DNA of 64,000 bases from an uncultured Alphaproteobacteria bacterium (lineage in GTDB: Bacteria; Pseudomonadota; Alphaproteobacteria; SP197), in assembly GCA_943787175.1 (NCBI GenBank), contig CALSLK010000021.1:9482-73481 (forward strand), read 5' to 3'. Within the stretch, counting starts at the first letter, position 1. Every line of letters starts with the position of its first letter. A model generated the notes under the pieces. It searched no databases and had not been told where the DNA came from. It saw only the letters and a program-made list of their open reading frames with translations. The position numbers were made by a program, and so were the translations under genes. This document shows positions 190 to 59,539 of the stretch, one piece after another.

Positions 190-272
190 GCCGACCGTGA
201 CAAGGCCGTGCCTGCTGTCTGGGGCGGACCATATAGTATCGAATGCCTCCGCCCGCAACCGGCATAACGCCA

Positions 273-4695: not shown

Positions 4696-4703
4696 TCTGG
4701 AAG

Positions 4704-6163: not shown

Positions 6164-6165
6164 GG

Positions 6166-6480
6166 TCAGCCGTTGCCACGATCAGGATGATCGTCGTTGA
6201 TCTGGTCTTTTAGAACATGCGATGCCCGGAACACCAAAACCCGGCGGGGCAGAATGGGAACCTCTTCACCGGTCTTGAGATTACGTCCAACCCGTTGCGC
6301 CTTCTCCCGAACGGAGAAACTACCAAACGATGAGATCTTTACCGTGTGGCCATCTGCAAGCGTGTCGGAGATCTCCCCCAGCACCGATTCCACCAGTTCG
6401 GCGGACTCGCTGCGCGAGAGCCCAACCTCGTGGTAAACCGCCTCAGTAAGGTCGGCTCGGGTCATGGTCTTGTCAGCCAT
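6166..6480 (-). CDS. ihfA: integration host factor subunit alpha
   Basis: 104 aa; [10 protein letters not shown]...GFGSFSVR...[11 protein letters not shown], typical HU/IHF fold sequence. Confidence 0.9.
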
Positions 6481-6541
6481 GCGCTAGATGTCTCCTATCC
6501 CCTTAAGGTGATAGGCTAACTGCAAGGAGAAAATCAGTCAA

Positions 6542-6554
6542 TATCAACTGGTTG
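6542..6554. promoter_or_regulatory. IHF consensus-like site TATCAACTGGTTG (WATCAANNNNTTR) upstream of ihfA
   Basis: Match to the IHF consensus about 60 nt upstream of the ihfA start. ihfA is autoregulated in other bacteria. Confidence 0.2.
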
Positions 6555-6616
6555 CGTCTGATCGCTTAGATCAAACAAGATAGGCTTAGGTCGCGTTGTT
6601 AACGTAAAGAGTCAAG

Positions 6617-7594
6617 TTACCAACGTACCATGGCTGATCCCCAGGTGAAGCCGCCACCCATGGCTTCCAACAGCACCATGTCGCCCCGCTTGATACGGCC
6701 ATCGCCCGTGGCTTCTGCGAGAGCTAGCGGTATCGAAGCGGCCGACGTGTTGGCGTGACGGTCAATGGTGATGACGACCCGCTCGTCGGTCATACCCAGC
6801 TTGCGCGCTGTTGCGTCAATGATGCGACGGTTCGCCTGGTGTGGAACCAGCCAATCAATATCTTCTTTCGCAAGCCCGTTGGCTTCCAGTGCCTCGTCGA
6901 CAGCCTGAGCCAGATTGACGACAGCGTGCTTGAAGACCTCCCGGCCTTCCATGCGCAACTGACCAACCTGCTGATTGGTCGATGGCCCACCGTCGACATA
7001 GAGCATTTTGGTATGATTGCCGTCGGCATGAAGGTGGGTCGAAAGGATGCCACGATCAGCAGACGTGCCCTCACCTACTCCCGGCTGCAAGACGACCGCT
7101 CCGGCACCGTCTCCAAACAGGACACAGGTACCACGGTCACTCCAGTCGAGTATGCGCGAGAAAGTCTCGGCTCCGATTACCAGCGCACCCTGCGACTGTC
7201 CAAGACGCACAAAGTTGTCGGCAACGGCCAGCGCATAGACGAATCCGGTGCAAACGGCCTGAACATCAAAGGCAGCACCCTTGGAAACACCCAGGTTGGC
7301 CTGAACCTGAGCCGCCGTTGCAGGAAATGTCAGATCGGGGGTCGCGGTCGCCACGATGATAAGGTCGATGTCATCAGCGGTGACCCCAGCATGATCCATG
7401 GCTCGCCTGGCAGCGCGCGTCGCCAGGTCGGATGTTGGCTGACCGTCTGCGGCGATATGGCGCTGTCGAATGCCCGTACGCGACTGGATCCATTCATCGG
7501 TTGTATCGATCTGCTCAGCCAACTCCGCGTTGGTCAGGCAGCGTTCGGGAAGATAGGAGCCAGAGCCAACGATGTATGAGCGGATGATGGTCAC
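6617..7594 (-). CDS. fabH: beta-ketoacyl-ACP synthase III
   Basis: 325 aa; [24 protein letters not shown]-terminus; catalytic Cys context CTGFVYAL; fabH-plsX-rpmF synteny. Confidence 0.9.
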
Positions 7595-8640
7595 GAGTTT
7601 ACCGCTTCAACAGGCACACCAGAGAACTGTCCGAGCAATTCCACGTCCTTGATGACCTTCTCGTTGAAACCCTGGGTCAGCATATCGACGGCAAAACCGA
7701 TGGCATTGGCATATCCCTGGGCATCCGTACCGCCATGGCTCTTCACAGCCACGCCATTGAGGCCCAGAAACATGCCGCCATTGTACTGGCGTGGATCGAC
7801 CCGGTTCTTGAGAGCGTTCAACGCCGGCTTGGCAAGCCAGTAGCCCAGCTTCGAAAAGAGCGATCGTCGGAACGTCGCGCGCAGGAAATCGCTGTACATG
7901 CTCGCGGTACCCTCAGCAGTTTTGAGTGCAATGTTCCCGCTGAATCCATCGGCAACGACCACATCAACCGTGCCTTCGGTGATATCGTTGCCCTCAACAA
8001 ACCCATAGAACTCGAGAGGCAATTCGGCATTGCGGAGAATTTCGGCAGCTCGCCGAATCTCCTCATGTCCCTTGCTCTCTTCACTACCCACATTCAGCAA
8101 GCCGACAATCGGGCGACGCTGCCCCTGGATGCTGCGAGCAAAGGCAGCTCCCATAACAGCAAACTGCACGAGATTATCGGCATCACAGTCGATGTTCGCA
8201 CCAAGGTCGAGCATGACCGATTGGCCACGCTGAGTGGGGAACGTTGATGCAATGGCAGGACGATTGATCCCGGGCAAGGTGCGCAGCGCCAGTTTTGCCA
8301 TGGCCATCAATGCGCCGGTGTTGCCCGCTGAGACAACGCCAGAGGCTTTGCCCATCTTTACGTCGTCAATGGCCATGCGCATGCTGGATTTGCCACCGCG
8401 GCGCAAAGCCTGAGACGGCTTCATATCCGGCTCAATGACCATCTCGGCGTCGATGATCTCACTGACACCGTCAAGCTTGGGGAATCGCTTCAGGAGTTTT
8501 TCCAGCTTCTCGCGCTGACCGAACAGTCGAAACTGCGTGTCAGGGTAACGCACGCGCGCAACATTTGCGCCTGCGACAACGATTTCTGGCGCACGATCAC
8601 CACCCATGGCGTCCAGTGCAATCACATGGGCAGATGTCAT
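7591..8640 (-). CDS. plsX: phosphate acyltransferase PlsX
   Basis: [18 protein letters not shown] motif. The six-frame ORF runs upstream into rpmF; the true start is [10 protein letters not shown] at 8640. Confidence 0.85.
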
Positions 8641-8677
8641 GATGTCAACGCGAACCTCACGAATGGGGCCGGAAGGA

Positions 8678-8863
8678 TCAGATGCTGCCCTTGGGCTCCG
8701 TGACCTCTCGGTCGCGGTAGAAGCCGCAGGACGAACACACATGATGCGGCAGCTTGATTTCGCCGCAGTTGGGGCATTCGTTAATGGACGCCGCAACCAA
8801 CGAATGGTGCGAGCGACGATTGTCCCGCCTGGAACGGGAAACTTTCTTCTTTGGGACCGCCAT
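8678..8863 (-). CDS. rpmF: 50S ribosomal protein L32
   Basis: 61 aa [20 protein letters not shown]... with a CPNCG...CSSCG zinc ribbon. Confidence 0.9.
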
Positions 8864-8936
8864 GGTTTGCGTCTCTACTTCAGAATTGGAGGATTTCTGG
8901 GGCTATATCAGGCTTTTCGGAGCCCGACAAGCATGC

Positions 8937-9536
8937 TCATCCGTCTAGCTTGAGACCTTTGAGCGCAGCGAAGGGATTATCACGCTTAGGAGCTTCAACC
9001 TCAACATATCTGGGGTCGATCGAGGCACCCTTGGCACGCGGGTAAGGATCAAGTGCCAGGCCCAACTGTTCTGCGACCATCTTGCCAAGGTCGATGACGT
9101 CATCGACCAGAGGTTCAGGCGGATCTTCACTGCCGGGATCAAGATCGATGGTCTCGTCGAACTCACCAGATGGGCGCACATCAGGGTCAAATGCACGTGT
9201 GTAAGTTTCCTCAACCGTCAGCTTCAGAGGCTGTAGAGAAACGACACAGGTCTGTTCAATGCGCGCCGTCACTTCCGTTTCGGCAAGAACCTGTCTGCCA
9301 TGGCGTTTCAGAAGGATGTCGGCATGCAGGCTTTCAACCCCGGCAATAGAAAACCAACCCGCCAAAGCCTGACATTCTTCGGCATCAGCATCGATGGATT
9401 GTCTCTGGTAATCACCATCTTCCAGATCGAGGACGCTGACTAGACGTGAAAATTCTATGTCGTTCATGAAGACTATCCGCTGCAAGGCGAAACCATGTTC
9501 CGCGTCGTCTGATTCAATATGGAGGTTTGTCGTCAA
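8937..9536 (-). CDS. yceD: YceD/DUF177 family protein (large-subunit rRNA/L32 accumulation)
   Basis: 199 aa acidic protein in the conserved position upstream of rpmF. Confidence 0.7.
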   Translation of the reverse strand: MTTNLHIESDDAEHGFALQRIVFMNDIEFSRLVSVLDLEDGDYQRQSIDADAEECQALAGWFSIAGVESLHADILLKRHGRQVLAETEVTARIEQTCVVSLQPLKLTVEETYTRAFDPDVRPSGEFDETIDLDPGSEDPPEPLVDDVIDLGKMVAEQLGLALDPYPRAKGASIDPRYVEVEAPKRDNPFAALKGLKLDG

Positions 9537-9539
9537 ACC

Positions 9540-10157
9540 TCAATCTGTGGATGCATGGCCAGGACTGACAAGCGTCAGATCACCAGCCAATAGTGCATCG
9601 TCAGGCTGACTGTCCAGATGCGCTTCCTGGCCACGGACATAGGCCTCAAAGACAGTCAGATGATCTTCCTTGGCTTCGACGGTTCCGAACGTATTGCGCC
9701 GCAGGGCCTCTTTAAGGGCATCAGACTCCGCTCCATCAGCCAAAGCGGCGTTGAGCGCGGCTGCGCGCCCGTAAAAGGCCTGGCCCATCTGCTTGATGCG
9801 CGAACCGACTTTGAGGTCACCCACCCCGATCTGGCGCAACGCGCTGTCAAAGTCTGCGAACATCAGGTCAAACAGGGATTGTGCCGCCTCTGCACCACCC
9901 TCCTCGATCCGACGCAGGCGGCGCATAATCAGCAAACCGTGCAACACATTCATTTCGAAGCGGCCATCCAATGTGTCGGGCACACCAAGATCGGCAAAGA
10001 ACACAGGTTCACGCGCCCGCTCGACCATGGTGTCATAGAGCCGGTGTGTGGATTCATCGAAACGCGAACGAGAAAGCAGGCGTCGAAGCATGGCGTCATG
10101 GGCCCGATAGCGGTATGGAAGCGTGTCTGATTGACAGGGAGCATCGGCTCCCGGCAT
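9540..10157 (-). CDS. ubiquinol-cytochrome c chaperone (Cbp3-like) family protein
   Basis: 205 aa. Position between bamE and yceD matches the alphaproteobacterial arrangement. Family assignment from recall, not searched. Confidence 0.55.
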   Translation of the reverse strand: MPGADAPCQSDTLPYRYRAHDAMLRRLLSRSRFDESTHRLYDTMVERAREPVFFADLGVPDTLDGRFEMNVLHGLLIMRRLRRIEEGGAEAAQSLFDLMFADFDSALRQIGVGDLKVGSRIKQMGQAFYGRAAALNAALADGAESDALKEALRRNTFGTVEAKEDHLTVFEAYVRGQEAHLDSQPDDALLAGDLTLVSPGHASTD

Positions 10158-39340: not shown

Positions 39341-39976
39341 ATGGATCTTGCCGGTGAGTACCGTATCGAAGCCCCGCGCGATGCCGTCTGGCAGGCGCTG
39401 AACGATGCAGATGTGCTCAAGCAGTGCATTCCTGGTTGTCAGGAGATCGAGAAGGAGTCCGACACCGCATTCAATGCCAGGGTGAAGTCCAAGATCGGCC
39501 CGGTTTCTGCAACCTTCAAGGGCAAGGTGACGCTCTCGGAACTGGATCCGCCCAACGGCTATACGATATCCGGTGAAGGCCAAGGTGGCGTCGCCGGTTT
39601 TGCCAAGGGTGGCGCGCGCGTAAGCCTGGAAGAGGACGGCGCGGCAACCATGCTGCGTTATACGGCCGACGGACAGGTAGGTGGAAAACTGGCACAGGTC
39701 GGTGCACGCCTGGTGGAAGGAACCGCCAAGAAAGTCGCTGACGATTTCTTCACCCGATTCAACGAACTGGTTTCGCAACAGGCCGCAAGCCAGCCTGTTG
39801 TTGAACCCACTATGGCAGCAGCAACGACTTCACCGGAACGCGCAGCACCAACGCCTGCGCCTGCTCCAAATGGACCAGCGCGTGAACCGCAACCCACCTT
39901 GCTGGAAAACTGCTGGTTCGGACTTGCAGGCGTGACACTGCTGGTCCTATTCGTCATGGCGGGCCTTCCCCAATGA
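39341..39976 (+). CDS. coxG: CoxG-like SRPBCC protein (CO dehydrogenase subunit G family) with a C-terminal hydrophobic anchor
   Basis: N-terminal roughly 150 aa with a CoxG/SRPBCC pattern, a Pro/Ala linker and a C-terminal TM helix [15 protein letters not shown]. Confidence 0.6.
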
Positions 39977-40031
39977 TGTACTTGACCCATGGCCGCATGC
40001 CTTCGACACTCTGCCCGGTCAGACAGGAGAT

Positions 40032-40514
40032 TTGCCCATGACAATCACCGTATCCATGACGGTGAATGGCGAGGAACGCAGCGGCACGTGCGAGGAACGC
40101 ACGCTGCTGGTGACATTCCTGCGCGAGACACTGCGCCTGACCGGAACTCATGTCGGTTGCGACACCAGCCAGTGTGGCGCCTGTGTCGTCCATGTCGACG
40201 GTGAGTCAGTAAAATCCTGCACCATGCTCACGGTTCAGGCAGAGGGCCGCAACGTCACCACGATCGAAGGCGTTGCGGACGGTGACACGCTGCATCCCAT
40301 GCAGCAGGCGTTTCATGAAAATCATGGACTGCAGTGTGGTTATTGTACCCCCGGCATGATCATGAGTGCGCTCGACCTCATCAAACACAACCCTGACCCG
40401 ACAGAACGAGAAATCCGCGAGCACCTGGAAGGCAATCTTTGCCGCTGCACGGGCTACCACAACATCGTGAAATCCATCCGGGCCGCGGCCGACAAGATGG
40501 CAACGGGGGCCTGA
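40032..40514 (+). CDS. coxS: (2Fe-2S)-binding small subunit of an aerobic-type CO dehydrogenase / xanthine dehydrogenase family enzyme
   Basis: Both 2Fe-2S cysteine motifs: [12 protein letters not shown] and [10 protein letters not shown]...CRCTGY. Confidence 0.85.
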
Positions 40515-40516
40515 TC

Positions 40517-41314
40517 ATGTACGCCTTTTCGTTCCACCAGCCCGAAACACTGGAAGAAGCCAAACGCCTCTTCGGTGAAAGCGACGATCCACGCTATCTA
40601 TCGGGCGGTCACACGCTTCTGCCCTCCATGAAACTGCGCCTTGCCACGCCGTCGGACCTGATCGAGCTGAATGCCATCGAAAGCCTCAAAGGCATCAGCA
40701 TTGAAGGCGACAATGTCGTAGTTGGCGCTGGCACCCGTCATGGTGATGTCGCGCAATCAGCCGATGTTCTGGCCGCAATCCCAGCCTTGGCAGATCTGGC
40801 AGGCATGATCGGTGATTTTCAGGTCCGCAATCGAGGAACCCTGGGCGGTTCCATCGCAAATGCGGACCCTGCCGCTGATTATCCCGCCGCCATTGTTGGT
40901 TTGAACGCCACAGTAAAGACTGACCGCCGCGAAATTGCTGCTGATGACTATTTCACCGACCTGTTCGAGACGGCGCTGGAGGAGGACGAAATTGTCACCG
41001 CAGTGTCATTCCCCACGCCGGTACGCGCAGCCTATATGAAATTCCCCAACCCCGCCTCGCGCTACGCCATTGTCGGCGTATTCGTCGCCGAAACAGCCGG
41101 CGGGATACGTGTGGCCGTGACCGGCGCAGGTGCGAGCGTCTTCCGCGTTGTTGAGATGGAAGCGGCACTGACAGTGAACTTCGCACCCGAGGCCGTCGCT
41201 GACATCCTGATTCCTGATGACGACCTCAACAGCGATATCCACGCGGCCAACGACTACCGGGCACATCTGGTGACCGTTATGGCCAAACGCGCTGTTGAAA
41301 AAGCTCTGGGCTGA
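40517..41314 (+). CDS. coxM: FAD-binding medium subunit of the CODH/XDH family (CoxM/CutM-like)
   Basis: FAD_binding_5 pattern (YLSGGHTLLPSMKLRLA, RNRGTLGGSIANADP) and CO-dehydrogenase-flavoprotein C-terminal domain. Confidence 0.8.
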   Translation: MYAFSFHQPETLEEAKRLFGESDDPRYLSGGHTLLPSMKLRLATPSDLIELNAIESLKGISIEGDNVVVGAGTRHGDVAQSADVLAAIPALADLAGMIGDFQVRNRGTLGGSIANADPAADYPAAIVGLNATVKTDRREIAADDYFTDLFETALEEDEIVTAVSFPTPVRAAYMKFPNPASRYAIVGVFVAETAGGIRVAVTGAGASVFRVVEMEAALTVNFAPEAVADILIPDDDLNSDIHAANDYRAHLVTVMAKRAVEKALG

Positions 41315-41388
41315 TCGCCTCTTTCACATTTTGTCCAGCAGACTCGGTATCTCGTCGCCTGTGCGTGAAATCGCGCTAGACTGTCGCT

Positions 41389-44300
41389 ATGGTCATGCTG
41401 TTCATCAAGGACATGCTTGCATTGATACGGGTCACGGTTCGGCGTTTGTCGATCCTGGTGATCCTGTTGGCGGTCGTTGTTGTCGCAGTCTGGTTTACGG
41501 CACGGTACGAGGTCGTTGACTGGCTTGTTCGTCGTGGCCTCTATGAAACACCAACGCCGATAGCGACTTACGAGGTCGTTGAGGTCCGTACGGACCGCAT
41601 CGTTCTGGGCGGTGTTGCCATCGACGGGTTGCTATGGGCCGATCGGGTCGAGATTGGCTATAGCCTGCGCCAGGCGGTCGACGGCAGGGTTGGCACCATC
41701 GTGATCCGCGGTGCCGTTTTGCAGGTCTCGCTCGACAGTTCGGGAAATCCAACAGGACCTGCAAGCGATTGGGTCGCGATGCTGGCGCAATCTGAGTCCA
41801 GCGGTATGCCTCCGGCTTTTGAAAACGTGGTGCTGGAAAACGGCATCGTTGATGTCACGGCTCCCTGGTTGCATCTGCGCGCGGATGTTGACGGTGCCTT
41901 GAAAAACAGCCTGATTGCCGTTGATGGTGCGGGAACCTGGCTGGCCAGTTCCTCTATGGGTACCACAGAAGGTTCATTTTCCCTCCACGCTCCTCATGGA
42001 GAGAGTTCTCCAGAGATTACGATCGCGTTCGATACAGGCGATCTCGGCTATCAGGAAATGGTCGCGCAAGGGCTGAACGGAACGATTCAGATTGAAGCTT
42101 CGGGGTCGCCTCAAGTCATAGCTGACCTTCAGGCCAGGTCCCTCAGCACCAGAGACCACATCATTGCACCTCTTGCGCTTAGCGCCACTGTCGATGGCGG
42201 CGATGTAGCCGGACATCTGACGCTTGGTGATGATCTCAGCGCGATGTCTGCTTCGATCGACGTCGAGCTGGACATCGCAACACCAAACGCCCCTGCAACG
42301 GTTACCGCGTGGCTGGACCTGCAGGAAGATTTTACATTTCCCGGGCCACACGAAATCGAAATTCTGGCGCCTGCGCGGCTCGATATGAGTCTGGCCGCAA
42401 CGGCGGGCCCGAATGCCACCGGCCTGACGACAGAAGAATTGATTGAAGCTCTGAACGTCACGGGTGCCGTGGCAATGCATGCAGAGGGACTGATCGTCCC
42501 CGAATCAGCTTCATCTGGCCAGGTTGACCTTGCCTTCAAACTGGACATGGCCATGAGCGAAGCGCTCATGGTGCTTGAGGGTCCTGGTCACATAAGCGGC
42601 ATCCGATATGCAGGCAGCGATGCCACAGTGCCTTCGCCGCCTGCAATTCTAGGACAAACTTACGACCTGAACTTTGATGATCGCGGACTGAGGCTTGCAC
42701 TCGGCCCAACGGATGAGGGTTGGGTCGTTAGTCCCAGGATAACGGCACATCTGAGTGGAAGTGAAAACCTCGATGGAACGATATCCATGGGAGGTACTGC
42801 AGCGTTGGGCACCGCGTGGAATTTGCTCCGCACCTCTGTCTCCACATTCGAAGTGGATCTCCAGGGCCACATATGGCCGGAACTTGCGGAAGGATCACTC
42901 CGGGTCGCGTGTCAGGGTGCGGGATCGGGCGAGAACTTTGATGGCTCGTTCAATCTTCAGGGAAGATTCGACACCTTGCGTCTTCAGGGTGCCGAAGCGA
43001 CCGATGTCGAAATCGACTTGCCTTCGAGCATCACACTGGTTGATGGCGTGCTCAGTGGCACGGTGCACCCCATTGCATTGGCGCGGGCAGAAACTTTGTC
43101 ATGGAACGATGTGCGCATGGTCGGACTGTTGGCGGAATGGCCCCTGCGATATGCCTATTCAGATCAGGCGCTGCACATTTACCTGACCGACACCGGTTGG
43201 GTCGACATCGAGAGCCTTCAGCACCCGGCGTTCAAACTGGACGACGCGATGTCCATCAAGTTCGAGCCTGAACACTTGCCCAATGTGGTGATCGAACAGC
43301 CTGGCAAGGACATCAGCTGGGACATACGTTTGTCTCTCGCGCCATCAGATATCGCACTGACACTTTTAGACCCGGTCGCCGGCCAGGAACTCTCGGTCGT
43401 TGGGCAGCTCCCGCATATGGGGATTCGGTTCGGCAGCCTGGGGATCAGTCATCTGCAGGGCACGATGGAGTCCTCGCTTGGCGACCTTCACCTGATAGGT
43501 CCTGACCTGCGCGTCGCTGGCATCAAGCTGCTGGTTAACTATAACGATGGCCTCTCGCTATGGCCTCAGATCAGTGCCGAGGTTCGCAAGTTTGAAGATC
43601 TGCACACCCCGGCTCGATTTGCCCCTATTGTCGCAGATGCGCAGTTTGCTCCGGTTTGGCCTTCGGGTGGTGACCTGCGCATCACCGGCAACCTCCACAT
43701 GCAGGACCGGCGTTATCTTGCCAATGTCGAAGCAAGTTATGAACCCGGGCCAGACCGCTTCATGGCTCTGATTCGAATGCCGCCAATCCAGTTCGAGCCC
43801 GGTGGCTCCCAACCTGTTGATGTGTCACCGCTCTATGGTGCGTTGCTGGAAGACGCCGAAGGTTCCTTCGAGATTCTAGGCAAGCTGGGCTATGAAAACG
43901 GCAGGCCGACATCTGACATAACGCTGTTCCTACAGGGCCTTTCTGGCCGCAATGGCGATGTCGAACTTGCGGACCTCAATGGTGAAATTACTCTGTCAGA
44001 ACTCGCTCCCTGGACCACACCACCATCACAGACCCTGACTGCCGAAATGCTTGATATCGGCGTTCCTCTGACCGATGTCGAACTCTCACTGTCCCTACCA
44101 GGTGACGACAGCCTTTACCTGGAACTGGGCACGGCAGGCTTCGCAGGTGGAAGTGTTGCTGTTGGCCCCTCGGTTCTTCGATTGGGGCCGGGCCAGAACC
44201 GTATGGAACTCGATGTCACTGGCGTCGATCTGGCTCGACTGCTTGCCTATGCCGAGATTCCGGACCTGGAAGTCGACGCCAGATTATCGGGCTCACTGCC

Positions 44301-44667
44301 CTTGATCATCAGCGACGACGACTTTGCCATCGTGAACGGCCATTTGGAGTCCCAGGCAGCCGGGACGCTGCGATATGTTCCCACTGGAACGGATGTTCCG
44401 CTCGACCTTGGCGAAGAAAACGTTGGTTTGGTGCTGGACGCGCTGTCCAACTTTCATTTCAGCAGAATCGCCATGGACGTCAACAAACCCCTGGACGGGG
44501 CCACAGACCTCACGCTCCATGTCGCGGGTGCCAATCCTGATCTCTATGATGGCTATCCCATCGAGCTCAACGTCAACGTGACCGGAGATCTCGACAAGGT
44601 TGTGCGTGACAGCCTGGCAGGTTGGCGCATCTCCGAGGAACTGAAAGAGCGTCTGTCGGGTTTTTGA
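41389..44667 (+). CDS. ydbH: YdbH-like large envelope protein (AsmA-like family)
   Basis: 1092 aa; N-terminal signal anchor; followed by ynbE and ydbL homologues exactly as in the enterobacterial ydbH-ynbE-ydbL operon. Confidence 0.7.
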   Translation: MVMLFIKDMLALIRVTVRRLSILVILLAVVVVAVWFTARYEVVDWLVRRGLYETPTPIATYEVVEVRTDRIVLGGVAIDGLLWADRVEIGYSLRQAVDGRVGTIVIRGAVLQVSLDSSGNPTGPASDWVAMLAQSESSGMPPAFENVVLENGIVDVTAPWLHLRADVDGALKNSLIAVDGAGTWLASSSMGTTEGSFSLHAPHGESSPEITIAFDTGDLGYQEMVAQGLNGTIQIEASGSPQVIADLQARSLSTRDHIIAPLALSATVDGGDVAGHLTLGDDLSAMSASIDVELDIATPNAPATVTAWLDLQEDFTFPGPHEIEILAPARLDMSLAATAGPNATGLTTEELIEALNVTGAVAMHAEGLIVPESASSGQVDLAFKLDMAMSEALMVLEGPGHISGIRYAGSDATVPSPPAILGQTYDLNFDDRGLRLALGPTDEGWVVSPRITAHLSGSENLDGTISMGGTAALGTAWNLLRTSVSTFEVDLQGHIWPELAEGSLRVACQGAGSGENFDGSFNLQGRFDTLRLQGAEATDVEIDLPSSITLVDGVLSGTVHPIALARAETLSWNDVRMVGLLAEWPLRYAYSDQALHIYLTDTGWVDIESLQHPAFKLDDAMSIKFEPEHLPNVVIEQPGKDISWDIRLSLAPSDIALTLLDPVAGQELSVVGQLPHMGIRFGSLGISHLQGTMESSLGDLHLIGPDLRVAGIKLLVNYNDGLSLWPQISAEVRKFEDLHTPARFAPIVADAQFAPVWPSGGDLRITGNLHMQDRRYLANVEASYEPGPDRFMALIRMPPIQFEPGGSQPVDVSPLYGALLEDAEGSFEILGKLGYENGRPTSDITLFLQGLSGRNGDVELADLNGEITLSELAPWTTPPSQTLTAEMLDIGVPLTDVELSLSLPGDDSLYLELGTAGFAGGSVAVGPSVLRLGPGQNRMELDVTGVDLARLLAYAEIPDLEVDARLSGSLPLIISDDDFAIVNGHLESQAAGTLRYVPTGTDVPLDLGEENVGLVLDALSNFHFSRIAMDVNKPLDGATDLTLHVAGANPDLYDGYPIELNVNVTGDLDKVVRDSLAGWRISEELKERLSGF

Positions 44668-44698
44668 CACAAACGCGTGTCAGTAAAGGAAGCAGTAT

Positions 44699-44917
44699 AT
44701 GGAAGTACGCATGAGATCTGACCGCAGACGACTTCTTGCCCTCCCGGTTTTGGCAGTGACCGGCCTGTTTGTGACCGCCTGCCAGCCCACGGTACGTCTG
44801 GAGGCGCCCAAGGAACCGATCGTGATCAATCTCAACGTCAAGATTGAACAGGAAGTTCGGGTCAAACTGGAGAAAGACGTAGAGGCCTTGTTGGAGGATG
44901 ACGATGCACTGTTTTGA
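44699..44917 (+). CDS. ynbE: YnbE family lipoprotein
   Basis: Lipobox FVTAC, then RLEAPKEPIVINLNVKIEQEVRVKLEKDVEALLE, close to E. coli YnbE. Confidence 0.8.
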   Translation: MEVRMRSDRRRLLALPVLAVTGLFVTACQPTVRLEAPKEPIVINLNVKIEQEVRVKLEKDVEALLEDDDALF

Positions 44918-45260
44918 GATAACTCGCCGACGGATGCTGGGCATGATTGCCGGTGCTGCTGCCATGATTGCCTTACCCGGCCTTGCCTTTGCACAGAGCC
45001 TCGATGAAGCCCGTCAACTTGGCTACCTGGGCGAACGCCCCGATGGCTACCTTGCCCAACGTGACCCATCCGCACCGTCCTGGGCGACAGAACTGCTGAC
45101 TGAAATCAACAAGGGCCGCGAGCTCAAATATACGGAACTGGCACTCAAGAACGGGACATCCCTGGACGCGGTGCAGGTGGTTGCCGGCGAGAAGATCATC
45201 CAAAGCCTCGCTCCAGGCACCTACTACATGGACGCAACGGGTAACTGGGTGCAAAAATAG
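44898..45260 (+). CDS. ydbL: YdbL (DUF1318) family periplasmic protein
   Basis: Signal peptide, then LDEARQLGYLGERPDGYL...INKGRELKYTELA...QVVAGEKII, DUF1318 pattern. Confidence 0.75.
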   Translation: MTMHCFEITRRRMLGMIAGAAAMIALPGLAFAQSLDEARQLGYLGERPDGYLAQRDPSAPSWATELLTEINKGRELKYTELALKNGTSLDAVQVVAGEKIIQSLAPGTYYMDATGNWVQK

Positions 45261-45296
45261 CGGCTCCTCATCGCTTTCCGCTGTAGTCTGGTTCCC

Positions 45297-46217
45297 ATGT
45301 CCCTGCCCTCTTCGATTGATGCGACCGTGGCGCTGCTGGAATCGGCCGACTATGTCGCCGACCGCAGCCTTGCCACCAGTCTTTATCTTGCCCTGACCAT
45401 GGGTCGCCCGTTGTTTCTTGAGGGCGAAGCTGGCGTCGGCAAGACCGAAACTGCAAAGGTCCTGGCTGCAACGCTTGGCCGCGATCTGATCCGGTTGCAG
45501 TGCTATGAGGGCCTGGACGCTGCCCATGCCGTGTATGAGTGGAACTATCCCCGCCAGATGGTCGAGATCCGGCTGGCCGAGGCGAGCGGCCCTGTCGACC
45601 GCGAACAGATCAGCCGCGACATCTATAGCGAAGAATTTCTGGTCCGCCGTCCGATCCTCCAGGCACTAGAAGAGCACGAGGGCGGTCCACCTGTCCTGCT
45701 GATTGACGAACTGGACCGCACAGACGAGCCCTTTGAGGCCTACCTGCTGGAGGTTCTTTCGGACTTTCAGGTCACGATTCCTGAATTCGGCACGATCAGG
45801 GCACAAGAGCCGCCCATCGTCATCATCACGTCAAACCGGACGCGTGAGATTCACGACGCTCTGAAACGCCGATGCCTCTATGCCTGGATCGACTACCCCT
45901 CTGCCGTGCGCGAGCTCGATATCCTGCGGCGCAAGATGCCCAACTGCAGTGAACAGCTGTCTGCAGAGATCGTGGGGTTTGTGCAGGCCCTGCGCGACCG
46001 TGACCTCTTTAAGATGCCCGGCATTGCTGAGACCCTGGACTGGGCCACGGCTCTGGTCAGCCTGGACGCCATGACCCTGAATGCCCAGACGGTCGATGAC
46101 ACACTGGGCGTCCTGCTGAAGTACCAGGACGATATTGCGCGTATCAAAGGCACGGAAGCCGCAGGGCTTCTGGACCAGCTCCGCGCCAACATGGCCGTCG
46201 AAGCGGCCGCCCAATGA
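45297..46217 (+). CDS. coxD: MoxR-type AAA+ ATPase, CoxD subfamily
   Basis: Walker A GEAGVGKTE; Walker B LLIDELDR; MoxR architecture. Confidence 0.8.
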   Translation: MSLPSSIDATVALLESADYVADRSLATSLYLALTMGRPLFLEGEAGVGKTETAKVLAATLGRDLIRLQCYEGLDAAHAVYEWNYPRQMVEIRLAEASGPVDREQISRDIYSEEFLVRRPILQALEEHEGGPPVLLIDELDRTDEPFEAYLLEVLSDFQVTIPEFGTIRAQEPPIVIITSNRTREIHDALKRRCLYAWIDYPSAVRELDILRRKMPNCSEQLSAEIVGFVQALRDRDLFKMPGIAETLDWATALVSLDAMTLNAQTVDDTLGVLLKYQDDIARIKGTEAAGLLDQLRANMAVEAAAQ

Positions 46218-47422
46218 CAGCAACCGACCGCGCCGGTCGGCTGGCCGACAACATCATGCATTTTGCCCGCGCATTACGGGCAACGGGCGTTCCTGTCGGT
46301 CCAGGCAGCGTGCTTGATGCACTTCAGGCCGTCGAGGCCGCCGGCATAAGACGCCGCGAAGATTTTTACTGGACACTGCACAGTGTGTTTGTCCATCGCC
46401 GCGAACAACGCGATCTGTTTGACCAGATATTTCACCTGTTCTGGCGCGACCCCAAACTTCTTGAACGCATGCTGGGGCTTTCGCTTCCTTCGCTTGCGGC
46501 CGATTTCCAAGACCACACGGACCCAGTTGCCCGCCGCGTCGCCGAAGCCATGGGCTTGGGTGACAAGGAAAATCAGGCGCAGGACGACGAGGTCGAGTTC
46601 GATATGACCATGACATTTTCCGATCAGGAAAACCTGCGTCAGATGGACTTTGACGATATGTCGGCAGAGGAGACAGAAGCCGCCAGAAAAGCAATCGCGC
46701 GCATGCGTATGTCCTTCGAACGTATCCGCTCACGCCGCTTGATCCCAAGCTCGACAGGTTCCCGCATCGACCTGCGTCGAACCCTGCGTGAAGCCCCACG
46801 TTCTGCCCACGGCATCATGCCTCTTCATCGCGTTCGCCAGGATCATAGACCGCCTGTCCTGGTACTCATATGCGACATCTCCGGGTCCATGACGGGTTAC
46901 AGCCGCATGCTGATCCACTTTGCTCATGCGCTGACCAACGACCAGCATCGCGTACACACCTTTGCGTTCGGCACGCGCCTGACCAACATCACGCGCGACT
47001 TGCGCAATCGCGATGTTGACCTGGCTTTGACAAAGGTTGCCAAACGGGTCGATGACTGGTCTGGCGGCACCAAGATCAGCGGCTGCCTGCATGACTTCAA
47101 TCGCGACTGGTCCCGCCGGGTTCTTGGCCAGGGAGCCGTTGTGGTGCTGGTGACAGACGGCCTGGACCGCGATACCGATGGCGGCCTGGCGCACGAAATG
47201 ACTCTGCTGCAGCGGTCCTGTCGCAGATTGATCTGGCTGAATCCCCTGTTGCGCTGGCGCGGTTTTGAGCCGAGATCATGGGGAATTCGCACCATGCTTC
47301 CCCATGTCGATGCCTTCAGAGCCTGCCATAATCTCGATAGCCTGGAAGACCTCGCACGTTCCCTTTCCGGCGAGGATCAGAGTGCTGACGAGGAGATGAA
47401 ACGATGGCTGAACGCAGCATGA
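46214..47422 (+). CDS. coxE: VWA domain-containing protein, CoxE family
   Basis: 402 aa; C-terminal VWA with MIDAS DxSGS (LICDISGSM); overlaps coxD stop. Confidence 0.75.
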   Translation: MTATDRAGRLADNIMHFARALRATGVPVGPGSVLDALQAVEAAGIRRREDFYWTLHSVFVHRREQRDLFDQIFHLFWRDPKLLERMLGLSLPSLAADFQDHTDPVARRVAEAMGLGDKENQAQDDEVEFDMTMTFSDQENLRQMDFDDMSAEETEAARKAIARMRMSFERIRSRRLIPSSTGSRIDLRRTLREAPRSAHGIMPLHRVRQDHRPPVLVLICDISGSMTGYSRMLIHFAHALTNDQHRVHTFAFGTRLTNITRDLRNRDVDLALTKVAKRVDDWSGGTKISGCLHDFNRDWSRRVLGQGAVVVLVTDGLDRDTDGGLAHEMTLLQRSCRRLIWLNPLLRWRGFEPRSWGIRTMLPHVDAFRACHNLDSLEDLARSLSGEDQSADEEMKRWLNAA

Positions 47423-47733
47423 ACGAAGACGTCCTGCACATTGCACAGGCCTGGCATGAGGCGGGACAGCGTGTCGCGCTTGCAACCGTCACAGCGACCT
47501 GGGGTTCCAGTCCGCGTCCGGTCGGAAGCTTGCTGGCGGTGCGCGAAGACGGCAGCTTTGAAGGCTCGGTCTCCGGCGGCTGCATCGAGGGTTCCGTGAT
47601 CGGAGAAGCCCGGAATGCCATGTCCGACGGTAAAGTCCGCAATCTTGAATTCTCCGTCAGCAACGAAACCGCCTGGGAAGTCGGTCTGACCTGCGGCGGC
47701 ACCGTGCGTGTCTTTGTCGAGCCGCTATCATGA
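47404..47733 (+). CDS. XdhC/CoxI N-terminal-domain protein (stand-alone)
   Basis: 109 aa; RVALATVTATWGSSPRPVGSLLAV...GSVSGGCIEGSV matches the XdhC_CoxI domain; ATGA overlap with the next ORF. Confidence 0.6.
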   Translation: MAERSMNEDVLHIAQAWHEAGQRVALATVTATWGSSPRPVGSLLAVREDGSFEGSVSGGCIEGSVIGEARNAMSDGKVRNLEFSVSNETAWEVGLTCGGTVRVFVEPLS

Positions 47734-48410
47734 AGATGGCAACGCTTCGGGCCCTCAATGAGGCCCGCAACGCCAAACGCGCTGTCGTATTGGCAACATG
47801 GCTCGATACAGGTGAAGAACGTCTGATCGGGTTGGATGAGCCCGTTGAAGAGTCTATTTCAGCAGCCGTGGCCGAAGCATTCGCCCATGATCGCTCGACG
47901 ACCGTCGAGGTTGATGGACGCGATCTCTTTCTCAATGTCTTTAATCCACCCCTGCGTCTTGTCGTCATCGGCGCGGTCCATGTCGCTCAGCCCCTGGCAA
48001 CCTTGGCGCAGACTGTCGGCTACGATGTCACCATCGTCGATCCACGTCGTGCCTGGTCCGATCCGGCACGGTTCCCGGGCATCCGTGTTCTCAACACATG
48101 GCCAGACGATGCCTTGAAGACACTCGAACTCGATCATCGCACCGCCGTGGCAACCTTGACCCACGACCCCAAGATCGACGATCCGGCGCTGCACATCGCA
48201 CTTCGCGCACCGGTATTTTACGTTGGCTCTCTGGGCAGCAGACGCACCCATGCCAAACGCCTGGACCGCCTTCATGAGGCTGGTTTCAGTACGACAGAAA
48301 CCGACAGGATCAACGCCCCAATCGGCTTGGATATCGGTGCCCGATCCCATGCAGAAATCGCACTTTCGGTGATGGCCGAAGTCGTCGCTGCGCAACATGG
48401 CAAACTCTGA
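47730..48410 (+). CDS. XdhC family molybdenum-cofactor insertion chaperone (CoxF-like)
   Basis: 226 aa; short XdhC_CoxI-like N-region plus Rossmann-like XdhC_C (LRLVVIGAVHVAQPLATLAQTVGYDVTIVDPR). Confidence 0.7.
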   Translation: MKMATLRALNEARNAKRAVVLATWLDTGEERLIGLDEPVEESISAAVAEAFAHDRSTTVEVDGRDLFLNVFNPPLRLVVIGAVHVAQPLATLAQTVGYDVTIVDPRRAWSDPARFPGIRVLNTWPDDALKTLELDHRTAVATLTHDPKIDDPALHIALRAPVFYVGSLGSRRTHAKRLDRLHEAGFSTTETDRINAPIGLDIGARSHAEIALSVMAEVVAAQHGKL

Positions 48411-50030
48411 TGATCTTTGATGAGATTCCAACACCAGAGGCTGCCGGTGCCATCCTCGTGCACAGCACACGCTGCGGCGATCGCACACTCAAGAAGGGCC
48501 TCCATCTGACGGCTGAGCATGTGGCATCGTTAGATGGCATCGGGTGTCGAGAACATCACCGTTGCACGTCTGGAACCCGGAGACGTCCACGAGGACGAAG
48601 CGGCCCGCCTGCTCGCTGACGCTCTGGCTGGCGAGAACCTGACAGTCAAGGCACCCTTTACCGGCCGCGCCAATCTGCATGCTGGGCTGGACGGCCTTGC
48701 CAGTCTGGACATCCAGGCCATCGATGCGGTCAACATGGTCGACGAAGCGGTCACCGTGGCTACTGTCCCTTCCTTCGAGCGCGTGACATCCGGGCAGATG
48801 GTTGCCACGGTCAAGATCATCCCCTTCGCCGTTCCAAAAGAGACGCTCGATCTGTGCCTTGCTGCGGCAAGCACATCAAATGGTGCAATCGGCGTCGCTG
48901 GTTTCCGCGGCCATCGTGTCGCCCTCATCCTGACCCGCACGGCTGCCATCAAGGACCGTGTCCTCGACAAGACCGCCGATGTGGTTGAAACCCGCCTCGC
49001 CTCTCTTGGCATGCACTTAAGCCGTCAGGAACGCGTGCCGCACCGCGGGCAGGAACTGGCGCAGGCGATTAAGACCCTTGCCTGCGAACATGACCTGGTT
49101 CTGGTGTATGGCGCATCAGCCATTACCGACCGCCGGGACGTCGTGCCTGCGGCCATCGAGCAGGCAGGTGGCTACGTTGACCATTTGGGCATGCCGGTCG
49201 ATCCGGGAAACCTCCTGCTCCTCGGACATCTTGATGACACGACCGTTCTGGGACTGCCCGGTTGTGCGCGATCTCCCAAACTGAACGGATTCGATTGGGT
49301 GCTACAGCGTTTGGCAGCAGGCCTTCAGGTCACGGGCCGTGACATCATGGCGATGGGTGTCGGTGGTTTGTTGAAAGAAATCCCACTGCGGCCCCGGCCA
49401 CGCGAGCAGACCGAAGACGATCAGGACCGTGCAGACCGTCGCGCAGGTGTTGCCGCACTGGTCCTTGCTGCAGGCCAGTCACGCCGCATGGGGCCTGCCA
49501 ACAAGCTACTGATTCCGGTCGATGACAAACCCATGGTGCGCCACGTCGTCGATGCCTTGGAGGGTGCACGCATAGAGACCGTCCACGTCGTGATCGGCCA
49601 TGAAGCAGAAGCCGTCAAACAGGTGCTGACCGGTCACAACGTTTCCTTCACCCTAAACCCGCACTTCGATGAAGGGTTGAGCACCTCCCTTCAGGCAGGT
49701 CTTGCCGCATTACCCGACGACATTGACGCCGTTCTGGTTTGCCTGGGTGACATGCCGGGTATCCGCGCAACCGACATCGAAGCCATCATCCGTGCCTACG
49801 ATCCGTCCGAAGGCCACGCCATTGTGGTTCCCACCCACCAGGGCAAGCGGGGCAATCCGGTACTTTGGGATCGCCGCTTCTTCGAAGCCATGACATCGAT
49901 TTCCGGTGACACGGGTGCCCGTCACCTGATCGGCGAAAACGAAGACCTTGTGATTGAAGTCAAGATGGCTGATTCGGCTGTTCTGGAAGACTTCGATACC
50001 CCTGAAAGCCTGACATCACGGCAATCCTGA
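48410..50030 (+). CDS. molybdopterin-binding (MoCF-biosynthesis-type) domain fused to a MobA/MocA-like nucleotidyltransferase; apparent frameshift near 48543-48548
   Basis: N-terminus MIFDEIPTPEAAGAILVHS... is in one frame and continues as ENITVARLEPGDVHEDEAA in another. C-terminal half has LVLAAGQSRRMGPANKLL (MobA-like). Confidence 0.65.
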
Positions 50031-56829: not shown

Positions 56830-56908
56830 GCTCTACATCCCGGGAAAACTGAACTAGAAGGCAGGCATGGAAGCCATGTGACACCACATGGTCAAGGGCC
56901 AGAAGCGC

Positions 56909-57640
56909 ATGACGGGCACTTTGTTTCTGATCGGCACGCCGATCGGCAATCTCGACGACATCTCCAAGCGGGTTCTCGACACCCTGGGTTCGCTGGATGC
57001 GCTTGGCGTGCGAGGACACCACGACGTACGCGCAAGATCTATGAACACTTTCAGTCTCTCGAGTCCGCGCACCATCTTCTCCTGCAACGACCACAACGAG
57101 GACCGCGCCGTTTCGCGCATGGCTGGGCCTGTTGCGCCAGGGCTTGCGGGTGGGCCTCGCCACCGATGCAGGCATGCCCGGCATCAGCGACCCCGGCTTC
57201 CGCGCCGTCCAGATGGCCGAGGAAGAGGGATTTGCCGTCGAGGTGATCCCCGGCCCCACGGCCGTGGCCTCCGCCCTGGCCGTTTCCGGCCTTTCGGCCG
57301 CCAGCTACACCTTCAAGGGCTTTCCTCCGCGCAAATCCGGCAAGCGCCGCAACTTCCTGGCCGCCGATGCCCACGCCGACCACACCCTGGTGCTGTTTGA
57401 GTCGCCCCACCGCCTGGGCGCGCTCCTGGCCGATGCCCTGGCCGTGCTGGGTGACCGGCGCACGGCGGTCTGCATTGAACTGACCAAGATGTATCAGGAA
57501 ACCGCGCGCGGCTGGCTCTCCGACCTCGCCAACCGCTTTGCCCAGGAAGAGCCCAAGGGCGAAGTCACGGTCGTGATCGCCGGCAACAACCGCAAGTTCA
57601 TGCGCGAAACACCGGTCGAGGACGAAACCGCTCCTGGCTT
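56909..57640 (+). pseudogene. rsmI: 16S rRNA (cytidine1402-2'-O)-methyltransferase RsmI, several frame changes as assembled; 3' end uncertain
   Basis: MTGTLFLIGTPIGNLDDIS, EDTRRTRKIYEHF, NDHNEDRAVSRM and LATDAGMPGISDPG...ELTKMYQE...VTVVIAG lie in three frames. Confidence 0.7.
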
Positions 57641-57651
57641 GAAGACGACGC

Positions 57652-58743
57652 ATGATCAGGACGCTCAAGACCCGCCGCGGCCCCCTGCAGCTCCCGGCCT
57701 TCCTGCCGGACGGCACACGCGCCGTGGTGAAGGGCCTGGACGCGGCCGACCTCGCCCAATGCGGGATCGAGGCCATGATGGTCAACAGCCTCCATCTCGC
57801 CACGCGGCCCGGCACCTCGACCGTCAAGGCGCTGGGCGGCGTGCATGCCTTCATGGGCTGGAAGGGCGTCACGGCCTCGGACTCCGGCGGCTTTCAGGCC
57901 TGGTCCATGGCCGCCTCCGGCGCCGGACTTGGGCAGCGTGACGGACAAGGGTTTTGTCTATCGCCATGAAAAGAATGGCAAAAAGCACCTCCTGACGCCC
58001 GAGAAGTGCATCCGGCGCCAGCTTGAGCTCGATACCGACATCCTGTTCTGTCTGGATCAGTGCACCCATCCCGATGATTCCCCCGAAACCCAGCGTGATA
58101 GCGTGGAACGCAGCCTTGCCTGGGCGCGCCGCTGCCGTGACGAGTTTACGCAGCGCGGGTCGGTGAACCCGGTGACGGGGACGGCACCAACCGCCCCCTC
58201 CTGTTTGCCGTCGTGCAGGGAGGCAACGATCCCGATTTGCGGCGGCGTTGTGCCGATGAACTGGCTGCTATGGGCTTTGACGGTTTCGGCTTTGGCGGCT
58301 GGCCCATCGGTGATGATGGCAAGCTGACCGATATGGTTGCTTTGACGGCTGAATGTCTGCCAACCCAAGCGCCCAAACACGCCCTGGGGATTGGAAAACC
58401 CGACAATCTGGTAGCAGCATGGCGTGCAGGTTACCGCATGTTCGATTGCGCTTTGCCAACTCGGGATGCGCGCAGAAAGCGTTTATTCATTACATCAGAT
58501 ATTTCGTTTAATAGTGCGAATAATAAGAGTTTTTTTGACGTACTTTATATGGAAGATGAACGCCATTCACGCGATAGCGCGCCGCTTGACGGCAGGATTG
58601 ATCCCGATGGTCCCTCACGCGCCTATCTGCATCACCTGTTCAAGGTGAAGGATTCCTCGGCCGAGCGATTGGCAACACGCCAGAACCTCAAATTCTACGC
58701 CTGGATGATTGAGCGCCTGCGCGAGGAAGAGGCTGATGGCTGA
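57652..58743 (+). pseudogene. queuine tRNA-ribosyltransferase (Tgt)-family protein lacking the CxCxxC zinc motif; two frame changes as assembled (about 57935 and 58160-58195, the latter in G/C runs)
   Basis: PAFLPDGT...VKGL...SLHLATRPG, SDSGGFQAW, FCLDQC, VVQGGNDPDLRRRC...GFDGFGFGG, RMFDCALPTRDARR, SRAYLHHL...QNLKFY are all Tgt hallmarks. The zinc-motif position is occupied by an AT-rich in-frame segment. Confidence 0.7.
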
Positions 58744-59539
58744 TCCTCGCGAGACGCTTCTTGCCGGGCTCATGACGTCGTCGAAGTACCGACATTTGGC
58801 TCCCGCAGCCCTGGAACGCACGACCGACTGGGCCCTGGCGCGCCACAGAAAACCTGGCGATGCGCTCAAGGCCGCCAAACGCAAGTTGCACCAGGGATTT
58901 GGCGCCTACTTCGACCCCGGAGCATTGGAGGCCGTGCATCGCTTGCTCGACCAGGCAGATGAGACCACTGACCTTCAGGACCTCTCCACGCGCATCCTGG
59001 CACTCCATAGCTCGAGTGCCGAGCGTTTGCCGGTCATGGACGCGTTTTATACCGCGCTATGGGCTGAAATCGGCACACCTGGGCACATTCTGGACGTTGC
59101 ATCGGGTCTCAACCCCTTCGCGCTTCATGCCATGCATCTACCGCCCGAATGCATCTATACCGCGCTGGAGATCGACAACAGACTGGTCGAAGCCGCCAAC
59201 CGTTTTCTTTTGCTCAGCAACCAGCCAGGCAAGGCAATCTGGGCCGACGTCGTGAGCAGCCTCGATGATTACGATGCCGATGTCGCCCTGGTGCTCAAGA
59301 CCCTGCCTTGCCTTGAGCAGGAACAATCGGGCGCAGCCATTGACCTGCTCAAAGCCCTCGCGGGCACTCCCATCATCGTGGTGAGCTACCCCGTGCGTTC
59401 ACTGGGCGGCCGGGAAAAGGGCATGCGCGAGACCTATCTGGAGCAGATCACCACATTATCGGCACAAATCAGCCGTACCATGACGGTTCTACCCATTGAG
59501 GACGAATTGGTGACAGTCCTGCGGCACGCGCCATTGTGA
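58736..59539 (+). CDS. FmrO-family 16S rRNA (guanine1405-N7)-methyltransferase homologue (RmtB/ArmA-like)
   Basis: Intact 268 aa ORF. Recalled alignment to RmtB: SSKYRHLAP / SKKYRALCP; KRKLHQGFGAY / RTRLHGICGAY; LHSSSAERL / LHASTKERL; ILDVASGLNPFAL / VLDIACGLNPLAL; LVLKTLPCLEQEQSGAAIDLL...VSYPVRSLGGREKGM / LIFKLLPLLEREQAGSAMALL...VSFPTRSLGGRGKGM. Overlaps the Tgt-like stop by 8 nt. Confidence 0.75.
   Translation: MADPRETLLAGLMTSSKYRHLAPAALERTTDWALARHRKPGDALKAAKRKLHQGFGAYFDPGALEAVHRLLDQADETTDLQDLSTRILALHSSSAERLPVMDAFYTALWAEIGTPGHILDVASGLNPFALHAMHLPPECIYTALEIDNRLVEAANRFLLLSNQPGKAIWADVVSSLDDYDADVALVLKTLPCLEQEQSGAAIDLLKALAGTPIIVVSYPVRSLGGREKGMRETYLEQITTLSAQISRTMTVLPIEDELVTVLRHAPL

Follow-up and report, generated by a model that had tools for sequence, protein, structure and literature searches.

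The question raised by this locus is what an enzyme related to the acquired RmtB/ArmA-type aminoglycoside-resistance methyltransferases does in the chromosome of an uncultured bacterium. The locus lies in a stretch of 64,000 nucleotides (nt) of contig CALSLK010000021.1 from an uncultured alphaproteobacterium of the lineage SP197, hereafter called the window, and the gene in question belongs to the FmrO/Rmt family of 16S rRNA (guanine-N7) methyltransferases. Acquired 16S rRNA methyltransferases abolish the action of nearly all clinically used aminoglycosides, and the gene shows the native chromosomal state of such enzymes. We suggest that it most probably encodes a functional, vertically inherited 16S rRNA (guanine1405-N7)-methyltransferase, which is encoded by the terminal, translationally coupled cistron of a chromosomal rsmI-like/tgt-like/rmt operon and provides N7-methylated G1405 (m7G1405) constitutively. 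We infer which nucleotide is the target, as well as the resistance phenotype and a housekeeping role. Such a role, raised as one possibility in the original prediction made from the DNA letters, is the more likely idea because the operon groups genes for rRNA and tRNA modification. The enzyme family is already known; what is new is the operon context, which is shared with clinical genes.

The assignment to the Rmt/ArmA family is borne out by the Pfam FmrO profile PF07091, to which the original prediction had pointed. It is matched over its full length (positions 2-253 of 255) with 152.9 bits against a cut-off of 27 (E=1.4e-44). Among solved structures Sgm (E=6e-41) and RmtB (E=8e-30) lead, followed by RmtF, RmtC and ArmA. 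The motifs that were quoted for the protein, LDVASGLNP, LPCLEQEQSGAA and VSYPVRSLGGREKGM, are all present, and D120 and G124 of the first of them, the S-adenosylmethionine (SAM)-binding motif I, are invariant in the alignment. The AlphaFold2 model, built on 48 homologues, has a predicted local distance difference test score (pLDDT) of 93.8 and a predicted template modelling (TM) score of 0.91. It shows a two-domain fold with the N-terminal helical (N1/N2) domain and the C-terminal class I Rossmann methyltransferase domain. In Foldseek the model superimposes on Sgm over the full length with TM scores of 0.87/0.90 and a root-mean-square deviation of 2.2 Å; the corresponding TM scores are 0.82/0.90 for RmtB, 0.85/0.87 for RmtF and 0.74-0.78 for RmtC.

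The residues responsible for docking on the 30S subunit, distortion of helix 44 and positioning of G1405 are available from the cryo-electron microscopy (cryo-EM) structure of the RmtC-30S complex (PMC10054953). We mapped them onto the window protein by alignment with RmtC, RmtB1/2, RmtD2, RmtE2, RmtF1, RmtG, ArmA and Sgm. Each key residue of RmtC, as defined by mutagenesis or cryo-EM, is matched by an identical or conservative one: K20, Y21, Y40, R50, H54 and Y60 correspond to K17, Y18, H37, K48, H52 and Y58, and S107, D160, K204, K236, R241 and M245 to S93, E145, K188, R221, R226 and M230. By this mapping the N-terminal domain bears the docking and base-stacking residues K17, Y18, H37, K48, H52 and Y58 together with S93, which contacts the SAM carboxylate. 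Among 84 environmental homologues H52, S93, K188 and M230 are invariant. K188 is the counterpart of RmtC K204, which contacts N7 of G1405 (PMC10054953). R221, R226 and M230 fall on the loop that distorts helix 44. Residues 221-230 are the sole low-confidence stretch of the model, with the mean pLDDT falling to 69, and the loop of RmtC at this position is disordered until 30S binding (PMC10054953).

With RmtC, RmtB and Sgm as models, the following sequence of events is likely. In step 1 the N-terminal helical domain would dock on the assembled 30S subunit, at the surface formed by h24, h27, h44 and h45. In step 2 the R221-M230 loop and H52 would open helix 44 and flip out G1405, and in step 3 Y58 and K188 would position the flipped base. 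In step 4 the Rossmann domain would transfer the methyl group from SAM to N7. In step 5, with m7G1405 constitutive in the lineage, the ribosome would be intrinsically insensitive to 4,6-disubstituted 2-deoxystreptamine aminoglycosides.

The open reading frame is unbroken and its close homologues are of equal length, in line with the intact gene that had been predicted. It runs on the + strand from ATG 58736 to TGA 59537-59539 and encodes 267 amino acids (aa) and not 268, the 268th codon being the stop. An in-frame TTG further upstream, at 58709, was ruled out as the start: close homologues are all 267 aa long and begin with MAD or MAE at the equivalent Met. The Shine-Dalgarno-like GAGGAAGAGG ends 3 nt 5′ of the ATG, which itself lies inside the preceding tgt-like gene and overlaps its stop codon (TGA 58741-58743) as ATGGCTGA; the overlap of 8 nt is identical in the environmental loci L001, L002, L005 and L223 and in the rmtG plasmid locus L097. 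The methyltransferase gene is the last in the order rsmI-like/tgt-like/rmt, in which neighbouring cistrons overlap by 4-8 nt. Upstream of the operon Rfam detected neither a riboswitch nor any other RNA element, four distant tRNAs being the sole matches, and a scan of 56.5-60.3 kb for promoters and terminators gave signals no better than in shuffled sequence.

Is the gene native to its chromosome, or did it arrive there recently as a mobile aminoglycoside-resistance gene, as its membership of a family with notorious mobile resistance genes might suggest? No transposase, integrase or integron genes were found over about 20 kb of upstream sequence or in the 4.5 kb that remain downstream before the window ends, and no insertion sequence (IS) or ISCR element either, so that the non-mobile setting described in the original prediction holds. 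The locus and its neighbours are shared with relatives at 46-99% identity. In the near-identical contigs L002-L004 genes for a Rieske dioxygenase, a LysR regulator, a YjiS-like protein, an ADP-forming CoA ligase, and the rsmI-like and tgt-like genes precede the FmrO gene, and genes for a small secreted nuclease-like protein, short-chain dehydrogenases/reductases and a thiolase follow it. The same gene order is found in alphaproteobacterial metagenome-assembled genomes (MAGs) whose methyltransferase is 85%, 68%, 58% and 54-57% identical. In a sister subclade (46-52% identity) the FmrO gene, the nuclease-like gene and the thiolase are kept, with a CoA-ligase-like gene upstream instead. The nuclease-like gene always stands 3′ of the methyltransferase in both alphaproteobacterial subclades, including the one that lacks the tgt-like gene. 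In the neighbour-joining tree the window protein lies within a monophyletic alphaproteobacterial clade, congruent with host taxonomy, and dN/dS is 0.10-0.24 against three orthologues. On this evidence, with synteny reaching down to 46% identity, we regard the gene as the native alphaproteobacterial copy that had been proposed: chromosomal, vertically inherited and under purifying selection. Its GC content (0.56-0.60) is close to that of the flanks (0.60-0.63); atypical GC as a sign of transfer was dropped as not informative. With just 24-35% identity to plasmid genes in addition, recent acquisition is hardly tenable.

The original prediction had also seen in such a copy a potential progenitor or reservoir of acquired genes. 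The identity of the window protein to the acquired enzymes is 35% for RmtD2, 32% for RmtB1, 31% for RmtF1, 29% for RmtG, 27% for RmtE2, 26% for ArmA and 24% for RmtC. In a search of plasmids all 1588 matches were below 60% identity, those listed being at 27-35% (tblastn). The neighbour-joining tree, run with the clinical enzymes and Sgm as had been suggested, places the window protein outside their groups, the clinical enzymes forming a separate clade. With an NCBIfam Rmt score of 204 against 250 as well, the gene cannot, judged by its sequence, plausibly have given rise to any of the acquired genes known. The idea of a reservoir stands in part: the gene shares the operon type behind the mobilized rmtB, rmtD, rmtE and rmtG, but it is not the source of any known acquired gene. 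The FmrO family as a whole is diverse though not large: 1.84 billion representatives yielded 1,213 clusters at 50% identity, 194 of them with E<=1e-30. Relatives in 313 species-representative genomes came from a pattern-limited scan, and the best 80 are nearly all MAGs that represent uncultured bacteria of many phyla. Across a sizeable share of this uncultured diversity m7G1405 may belong to the normal modifications of the ribosome.

The link to the clinical genes lies in the operon. The plasmid regions carrying rmtD2, rmtG, rmtB2 and rmtE2 (Table 1) are all bounded by IS91/ISCR, IS26 or Tn3 elements. Because they keep the tgt-like neighbour, the window evidently shows, in its native form, the operon that gave rise to several acquired genes by mobilization. 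An orfA for a ‘tRNA ribosyltransferase’ reportedly lies upstream of rmtA as well. In the literature on a link between FmrO enzymes and transglycosylases, or on environmental origins, we found passing remarks on tgt or ‘tRNA ribosyltransferase’ beside rmtG only. A ‘tRNA ribosyltransferase’ is placed upstream of rmtG in PMC3904158, and an rmtG ‘operon with rsmH, tgt, rsmL’ on Klebsiella plasmids is attributed to Passarelli-Araujo et al. 2019 in PMC9311965, through which we cite it. As a separate observation, the Providencia rettgeri plasmid p12100-NDM (L098, 3995-6736) carries rmtB2 with full-length genes for a GGWP tgt-like protein and a metallophosphoesterase upstream and a fragment of a cation:proton antiporter gene downstream, so that its piece of the source genome is longer than in the common Tn3-truncated rmtB1 context.

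The operon signature on the rmtB2, rmtD2, rmtE2 and rmtG plasmids is a practical handle for tracing origins. The relatives of the rmtD-linked tgt-like gene, at 70-92% identity, are proteins of Clostridia/Christensenellales-type MAGs. We compared two contigs of this kind with the plasmid loci L096 and L097. In the first (L221; ENA ERZ15610073 NODE_3772, 3-5293) the order is rsmH - tgt - FmrO - three small open reading frames - rsmI in a Firmicute-type chromosomal context. Its methyltransferase shares 82% identity with RmtD2 and its tgt-like protein 92% with the plasmid counterpart, with 85% nucleotide identity to the rmtD2 plasmid across 2.27 kb. In the second (L223; ERZ28593610 scaffold_684, 6038-9696) the order rsmH - tgt - FmrO - rsmI is that of the rmtG plasmid region. 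We regard these Clostridia-type contigs as a lead on the source lineage of rmtD and rmtG; no paper tying the origin of both to Clostridia was found among those searched.

This type of operon recurs in Alphaproteobacteria, Chloroflexota, Latescibacterota, Armatimonadota, Nitrospirota, Bacillota and other phyla. Neighbour genes were scored by targeted tblastn and hidden Markov models, since clustering of six-frame open reading frames was swamped by shadow frames of high-GC DNA. Among 82 non-redundant environmental loci from many phyla the tgt-like gene adjoins the FmrO gene in 66; those lacking it belong mainly to the alphaproteobacterial sister subclade. The arrangement rsmI - tgt - FmrO is present at about 38 loci, tgt - FmrO is also common, and rsmH is occasionally present. 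At 8 loci from Latescibacterota and unclassified MAGs (L010 2170-3877; also L034, L036, L039, L053, L063, L065 and L067) a gene for a QueE-like radical-SAM protein, often followed by one for a GFO/IDH/MocA oxidoreductase, precedes tgt - FmrO. The best matches of this 217-aa protein are all models of QueE (7-carboxy-7-deazaguanine synthase), under their cut-offs. In the reverse direction, metagenome contigs were screened for DNA that encodes GFDG[YF]G[FY]GGWP, and 76 of the 93 hits with enough downstream sequence have the FmrO gene beside the GGWP tgt-like gene. The other 17 have no FmrO neighbour, and several of them lie in low-GC contigs among genes for ribosomal proteins, elongation factor G and RNA polymerase. 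We also note that some loci have, beside rsmI - tgt - FmrO, an additional gene of the FmrO family, which is divergent and shares 27-33% identity with the window protein (L044 1971-2810, L076 704-1654, L084 8716-9612).

This distribution bears on the idea of a producer self-resistance gene such as sgm, grmA, kgmB or fmrO, which might be suggested by the top solved-structure match, since Sgm comes from a producer. However, the same operon occurs across many phyla not known as producers, the 25 kb examined hold no aminoglycoside biosynthetic genes, and the neighbours serve rRNA/tRNA modification and primary metabolism. We consider producer self-resistance very improbable.

The tight coupling to the tgt-like gene bears on another alternative, namely that the enzyme is active and shares one substrate with the tgt-like enzyme, so that m7G1405 would be not the sole or not the final product. 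In one version N7-methylation would labilize the glycosidic bond of a 16S guanine and the GGWP transglycosylase would swap in a 7-deazaguanine; in the other the two enzymes would act on adjacent nucleotides of the decoding centre. Several observations are in favour of it: the adjacency in both directions, the stop/start overlaps that couple the genes, the joint transfer of tgt-like and rmt genes to plasmids, the presence in the same operon of rsmH and rsmI, both of which encode C1402 enzymes, and the QueE-like radical-SAM gene upstream in Latescibacterota. There is also a natural fusion of the two proteins (P0343/P0386, 628 aa), from one lineage and in two NCBI assemblies (contigs of 23.8 and 30.5 kb), with the GGWP TGT domain at residues 9-356 and the FmrO domain at 376-621. 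The FmrO domain of the fusion has alanines at both loop arginines (R221 and R226 of the window protein).

The binding pocket of the transglycosylase points in the same direction. The tgt-like protein of L002, the contig nearly identical to the window, matches Pfam TGT with 281 bits and is under the Tgt equivalog cut-off (TIGR00430, 264 vs 306.75). The GGWP subfamily is 46-92% identical internally across phyla, canonical Tgt being 31-39% identical to it, and no solved structure of the subfamily was found. The FmrO-linked tgt-like sequences, 63 in number, all keep the catalytic residues Asp102, Asp156 and Asp280 (Zymomonas mobilis numbering) and have GGWP in place of the pocket motif GGLAVGE; Glu235 is not conserved and Met260 is changed to Leu. 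In bacterial TGT the Leu231/Ala232 peptide flips, so that either its NH faces guanine N7 or its carbonyl faces the preQ1 aminomethyl group, and Glu235 stabilizes both states. As proline at position 232 has no NH, the GGWP subfamily would be barred from the canonical reading of N7, and the change from GGLA to invariant GGWP together with the loss of Glu235 is consistent with an altered N7-reading pocket. The three cysteines of the CxCxxC...H zinc site are lost in the alphaproteobacterial clade of the window only. The tgt-like codons of the window differ from those of L002 by 35 synonymous changes and 1 non-synonymous change; therefore the gene of this clade is under strong purifying constraint.

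Against a shared substrate, the acquired Rmt enzymes give resistance alone: RmtA-D, ArmA and Sgm expressed on their own raise the kanamycin minimum inhibitory concentration to >1024 mg/L (PMC12406665). In the alphaproteobacterial sister clade the methyltransferase is retained although no tgt-like gene adjoins it, and the solitary GGWP genes stand in part beside ribosomal-protein genes, as those of an ordinary tRNA enzyme would. We know of no report of 7-deazaguanine in rRNA. On balance we consider the shared substrate unlikely, and we give a similarly low chance to the specific form in which the GGWP enzyme is a 16S rRNA (30S) guanine transglycosylase at the decoding centre that swaps m7G1405 or a nearby guanine for 7-deazaguanine. 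If true, the operon would represent a previously unknown multi-step hypermodification of rRNA, with the clinical Rmt enzymes as one half severed from it.

The state of the upstream genes in the window raises the question of whether the operon is decaying in this strain and the methyltransferase is its inactive relic. Together the rsmI-like and tgt-like genes carry seven frameshifting insertions. Those of the rsmI-like gene are 1-bp insertions near 57001, 57019, 57048 and 57128 and a 2-bp insertion near 57635-57636, and those of the tgt-like gene, relative to L002, are +1 near 57929 and +2 near 58151-58152. The CoA-ligase gene is broken too, and further indels relative to L002 lie near 55528 and 56765. 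The intact RsmI-like orthologue of L002 passes TIGR00096 (193.9 vs the cut-off of 167.9), covering positions 2-225 of 275, and represents a short form. Identity between the window and L002 is about 85-94% over 52.7-58.2 kb and about 100% from about 58.2 kb to the window end. In the 52.7-58.2 kb segment substitutions are overwhelmingly synonymous, and every frame-breaking indel is a 1-2-bp insertion in the window. Since nearly all differences in the broken genes are synonymous, we take the frameshifts either as very recent, in a recombination tract that has just undergone pseudogenization, or as indel errors of a strain-chimeric assembly. The methyltransferase reading frame, however, is intact, lies wholly inside the clean part 3′ of about 58.2 kb and differs by just 2 amino acids from its counterpart in L002 (P0001), and the sister clade keeps FmrO without the operon partners. 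An inactive relic is thus scarcely likely.

Several points weigh against a functional G1405 methyltransferase expressed from the operon. The G1405 activity of the window protein and of the whole clade is predicted by likeness, at 24-38% identity to the characterized enzymes. The NCBIfam equivalog NF000466 ‘Rmt family’ is missed, with 204.3 bits against a cut-off of 250, and the named subfamilies (RmtB-H) score 69-111 against cut-offs of 500-550. These scores therefore make the protein a distant family member and not a catalogued resistance allele. A Latescibacterota homologue is likewise under the NF000466 cut-off, at 230, and the NCBIfam Rmt thresholds are evidently tuned to clinical and producer enzymes. 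The ribose-binding acidic residue is Glu (E145) and not Asp, as in 24 of the 84 homologues, most of which have Asp. The tight coupling to the tgt-like gene could mean a different or further-processed product, and with both upstream cistrons frame-broken in the window the expression of the operon is possibly disrupted. On the other side, the clinical Rmt enzymes of proven G1405 activity stem from the same operon type. We therefore keep the constitutive m7G1405 methyltransferase as the preferred reading.

The positions of the features are collected in Table 1. As for the more distant surroundings, 39341-50030 holds accessory genes of the CO-dehydrogenase/xanthine-dehydrogenase family (CoxG, FAD-binding subunit, AAA MoxR-like, VWA CoxE, XdhC, MobA-like), within which lies a 1092-aa YdbH-like gene; this is ordinary metabolism, irrelevant to the methyltransferase.

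Table 1. The methyltransferase gene, its parts and its neighbours in the window, and the plasmid contexts of related acquired genes
Feature	Position	Strand	Remarks
rsmI-like gene (16S rRNA C1402 2′-O-methyltransferase family)	56888..57655	+	Intact orthologue 253 aa; frame-broken in the window
tgt-like gene (GGWP subfamily, tRNA-guanine transglycosylases)	57652..58743	+	Intact orthologue 362 aa (L002); three frames in the window
Shine-Dalgarno-like GAGGAAGAGG	58723..58732	+	Lies within the tgt-like gene, at its 3′ end; from direct reading of the sequence
FmrO/Rmt-family 16S rRNA (guanine-N7) methyltransferase gene	58736..59539	+	267 aa, intact; reading frame, Pfam, PDB, AlphaFold2, dN/dS
N-terminal helical domain (residues 1-112)	58736..59071	+	Six helices in the AlphaFold2 model
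SAM-binding motif I LDVASGLNP (residues 119-127)	59090..59116	+	Invariant alignment columns
K188 and LPCLEQEQSGAA block (residues 190-201)	59297..59338	+	RmtC alignment; homologue conservation
VSYPVRSLGGREKGM block (residues 216-230)	59381..59425	+	RmtC alignment
Gene for 186-aa protein with N-terminal signal-like segment	59613..60173	+	Weak staphylococcal-nuclease-like match
rmtD2 plasmid context			361-aa GGWP tgt-like gene and rsmH remnant upstream
rmtG plasmid context			rsmH - tgt - rmtG (8-nt overlap) - truncated rsmI
rmtB2 plasmid context			tgt and metallophosphoesterase upstream
rmtE2 plasmid context			Truncated tgt upstream

Among known systems, the closest solved relative of the window protein is Sgm, the sisomicin-gentamicin resistance methylase of Micromonospora zionensis (PDB 3LCU/3LCV), at about 34-38% identity. 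The two have in common the two-domain architecture and the catalytic residues. However, Sgm provides producer self-resistance in an antibiotic context, whereas the window gene belongs to an rRNA/tRNA-modification operon in a non-producer lineage, and in the neighbour-joining tree Sgm joins Chloroflexota sequences, not the window clade. The tgt-like partner resembles Tgt of Z. mobilis and Escherichia coli, with which it shares the fold family (E=5e-63) and the catalytic Asp residues; unlike Tgt, it has invariant Trp-Pro in place of Leu231-Ala232.

RmtD, RmtB, RmtE and RmtG are of the same family as the window protein and likewise have a GGWP tgt-like gene upstream; rmtG and rmtE2 overlap their own tgt-like gene, rmtG by 8 nt as in the window. 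They are 27-35% identical to the window protein and share their clade in the neighbour-joining tree with Clostridia-type sequences. In contrast to the window copy, the plasmid copies are flanked by IS91/ISCR, IS26 and Tn3 elements. The ‘rmtG operon’ of Klebsiella (rsmH-tgt-rmtG-rsmI) joins, like the window, C1402 enzymes, a tgt-like gene and a G1405 methyltransferase. However, unlike in that operon, the order in the window is rsmI-tgt-rmt without rsmH, the operon is chromosomal, and the zinc cysteines are lost in its clade of tgt-like proteins.

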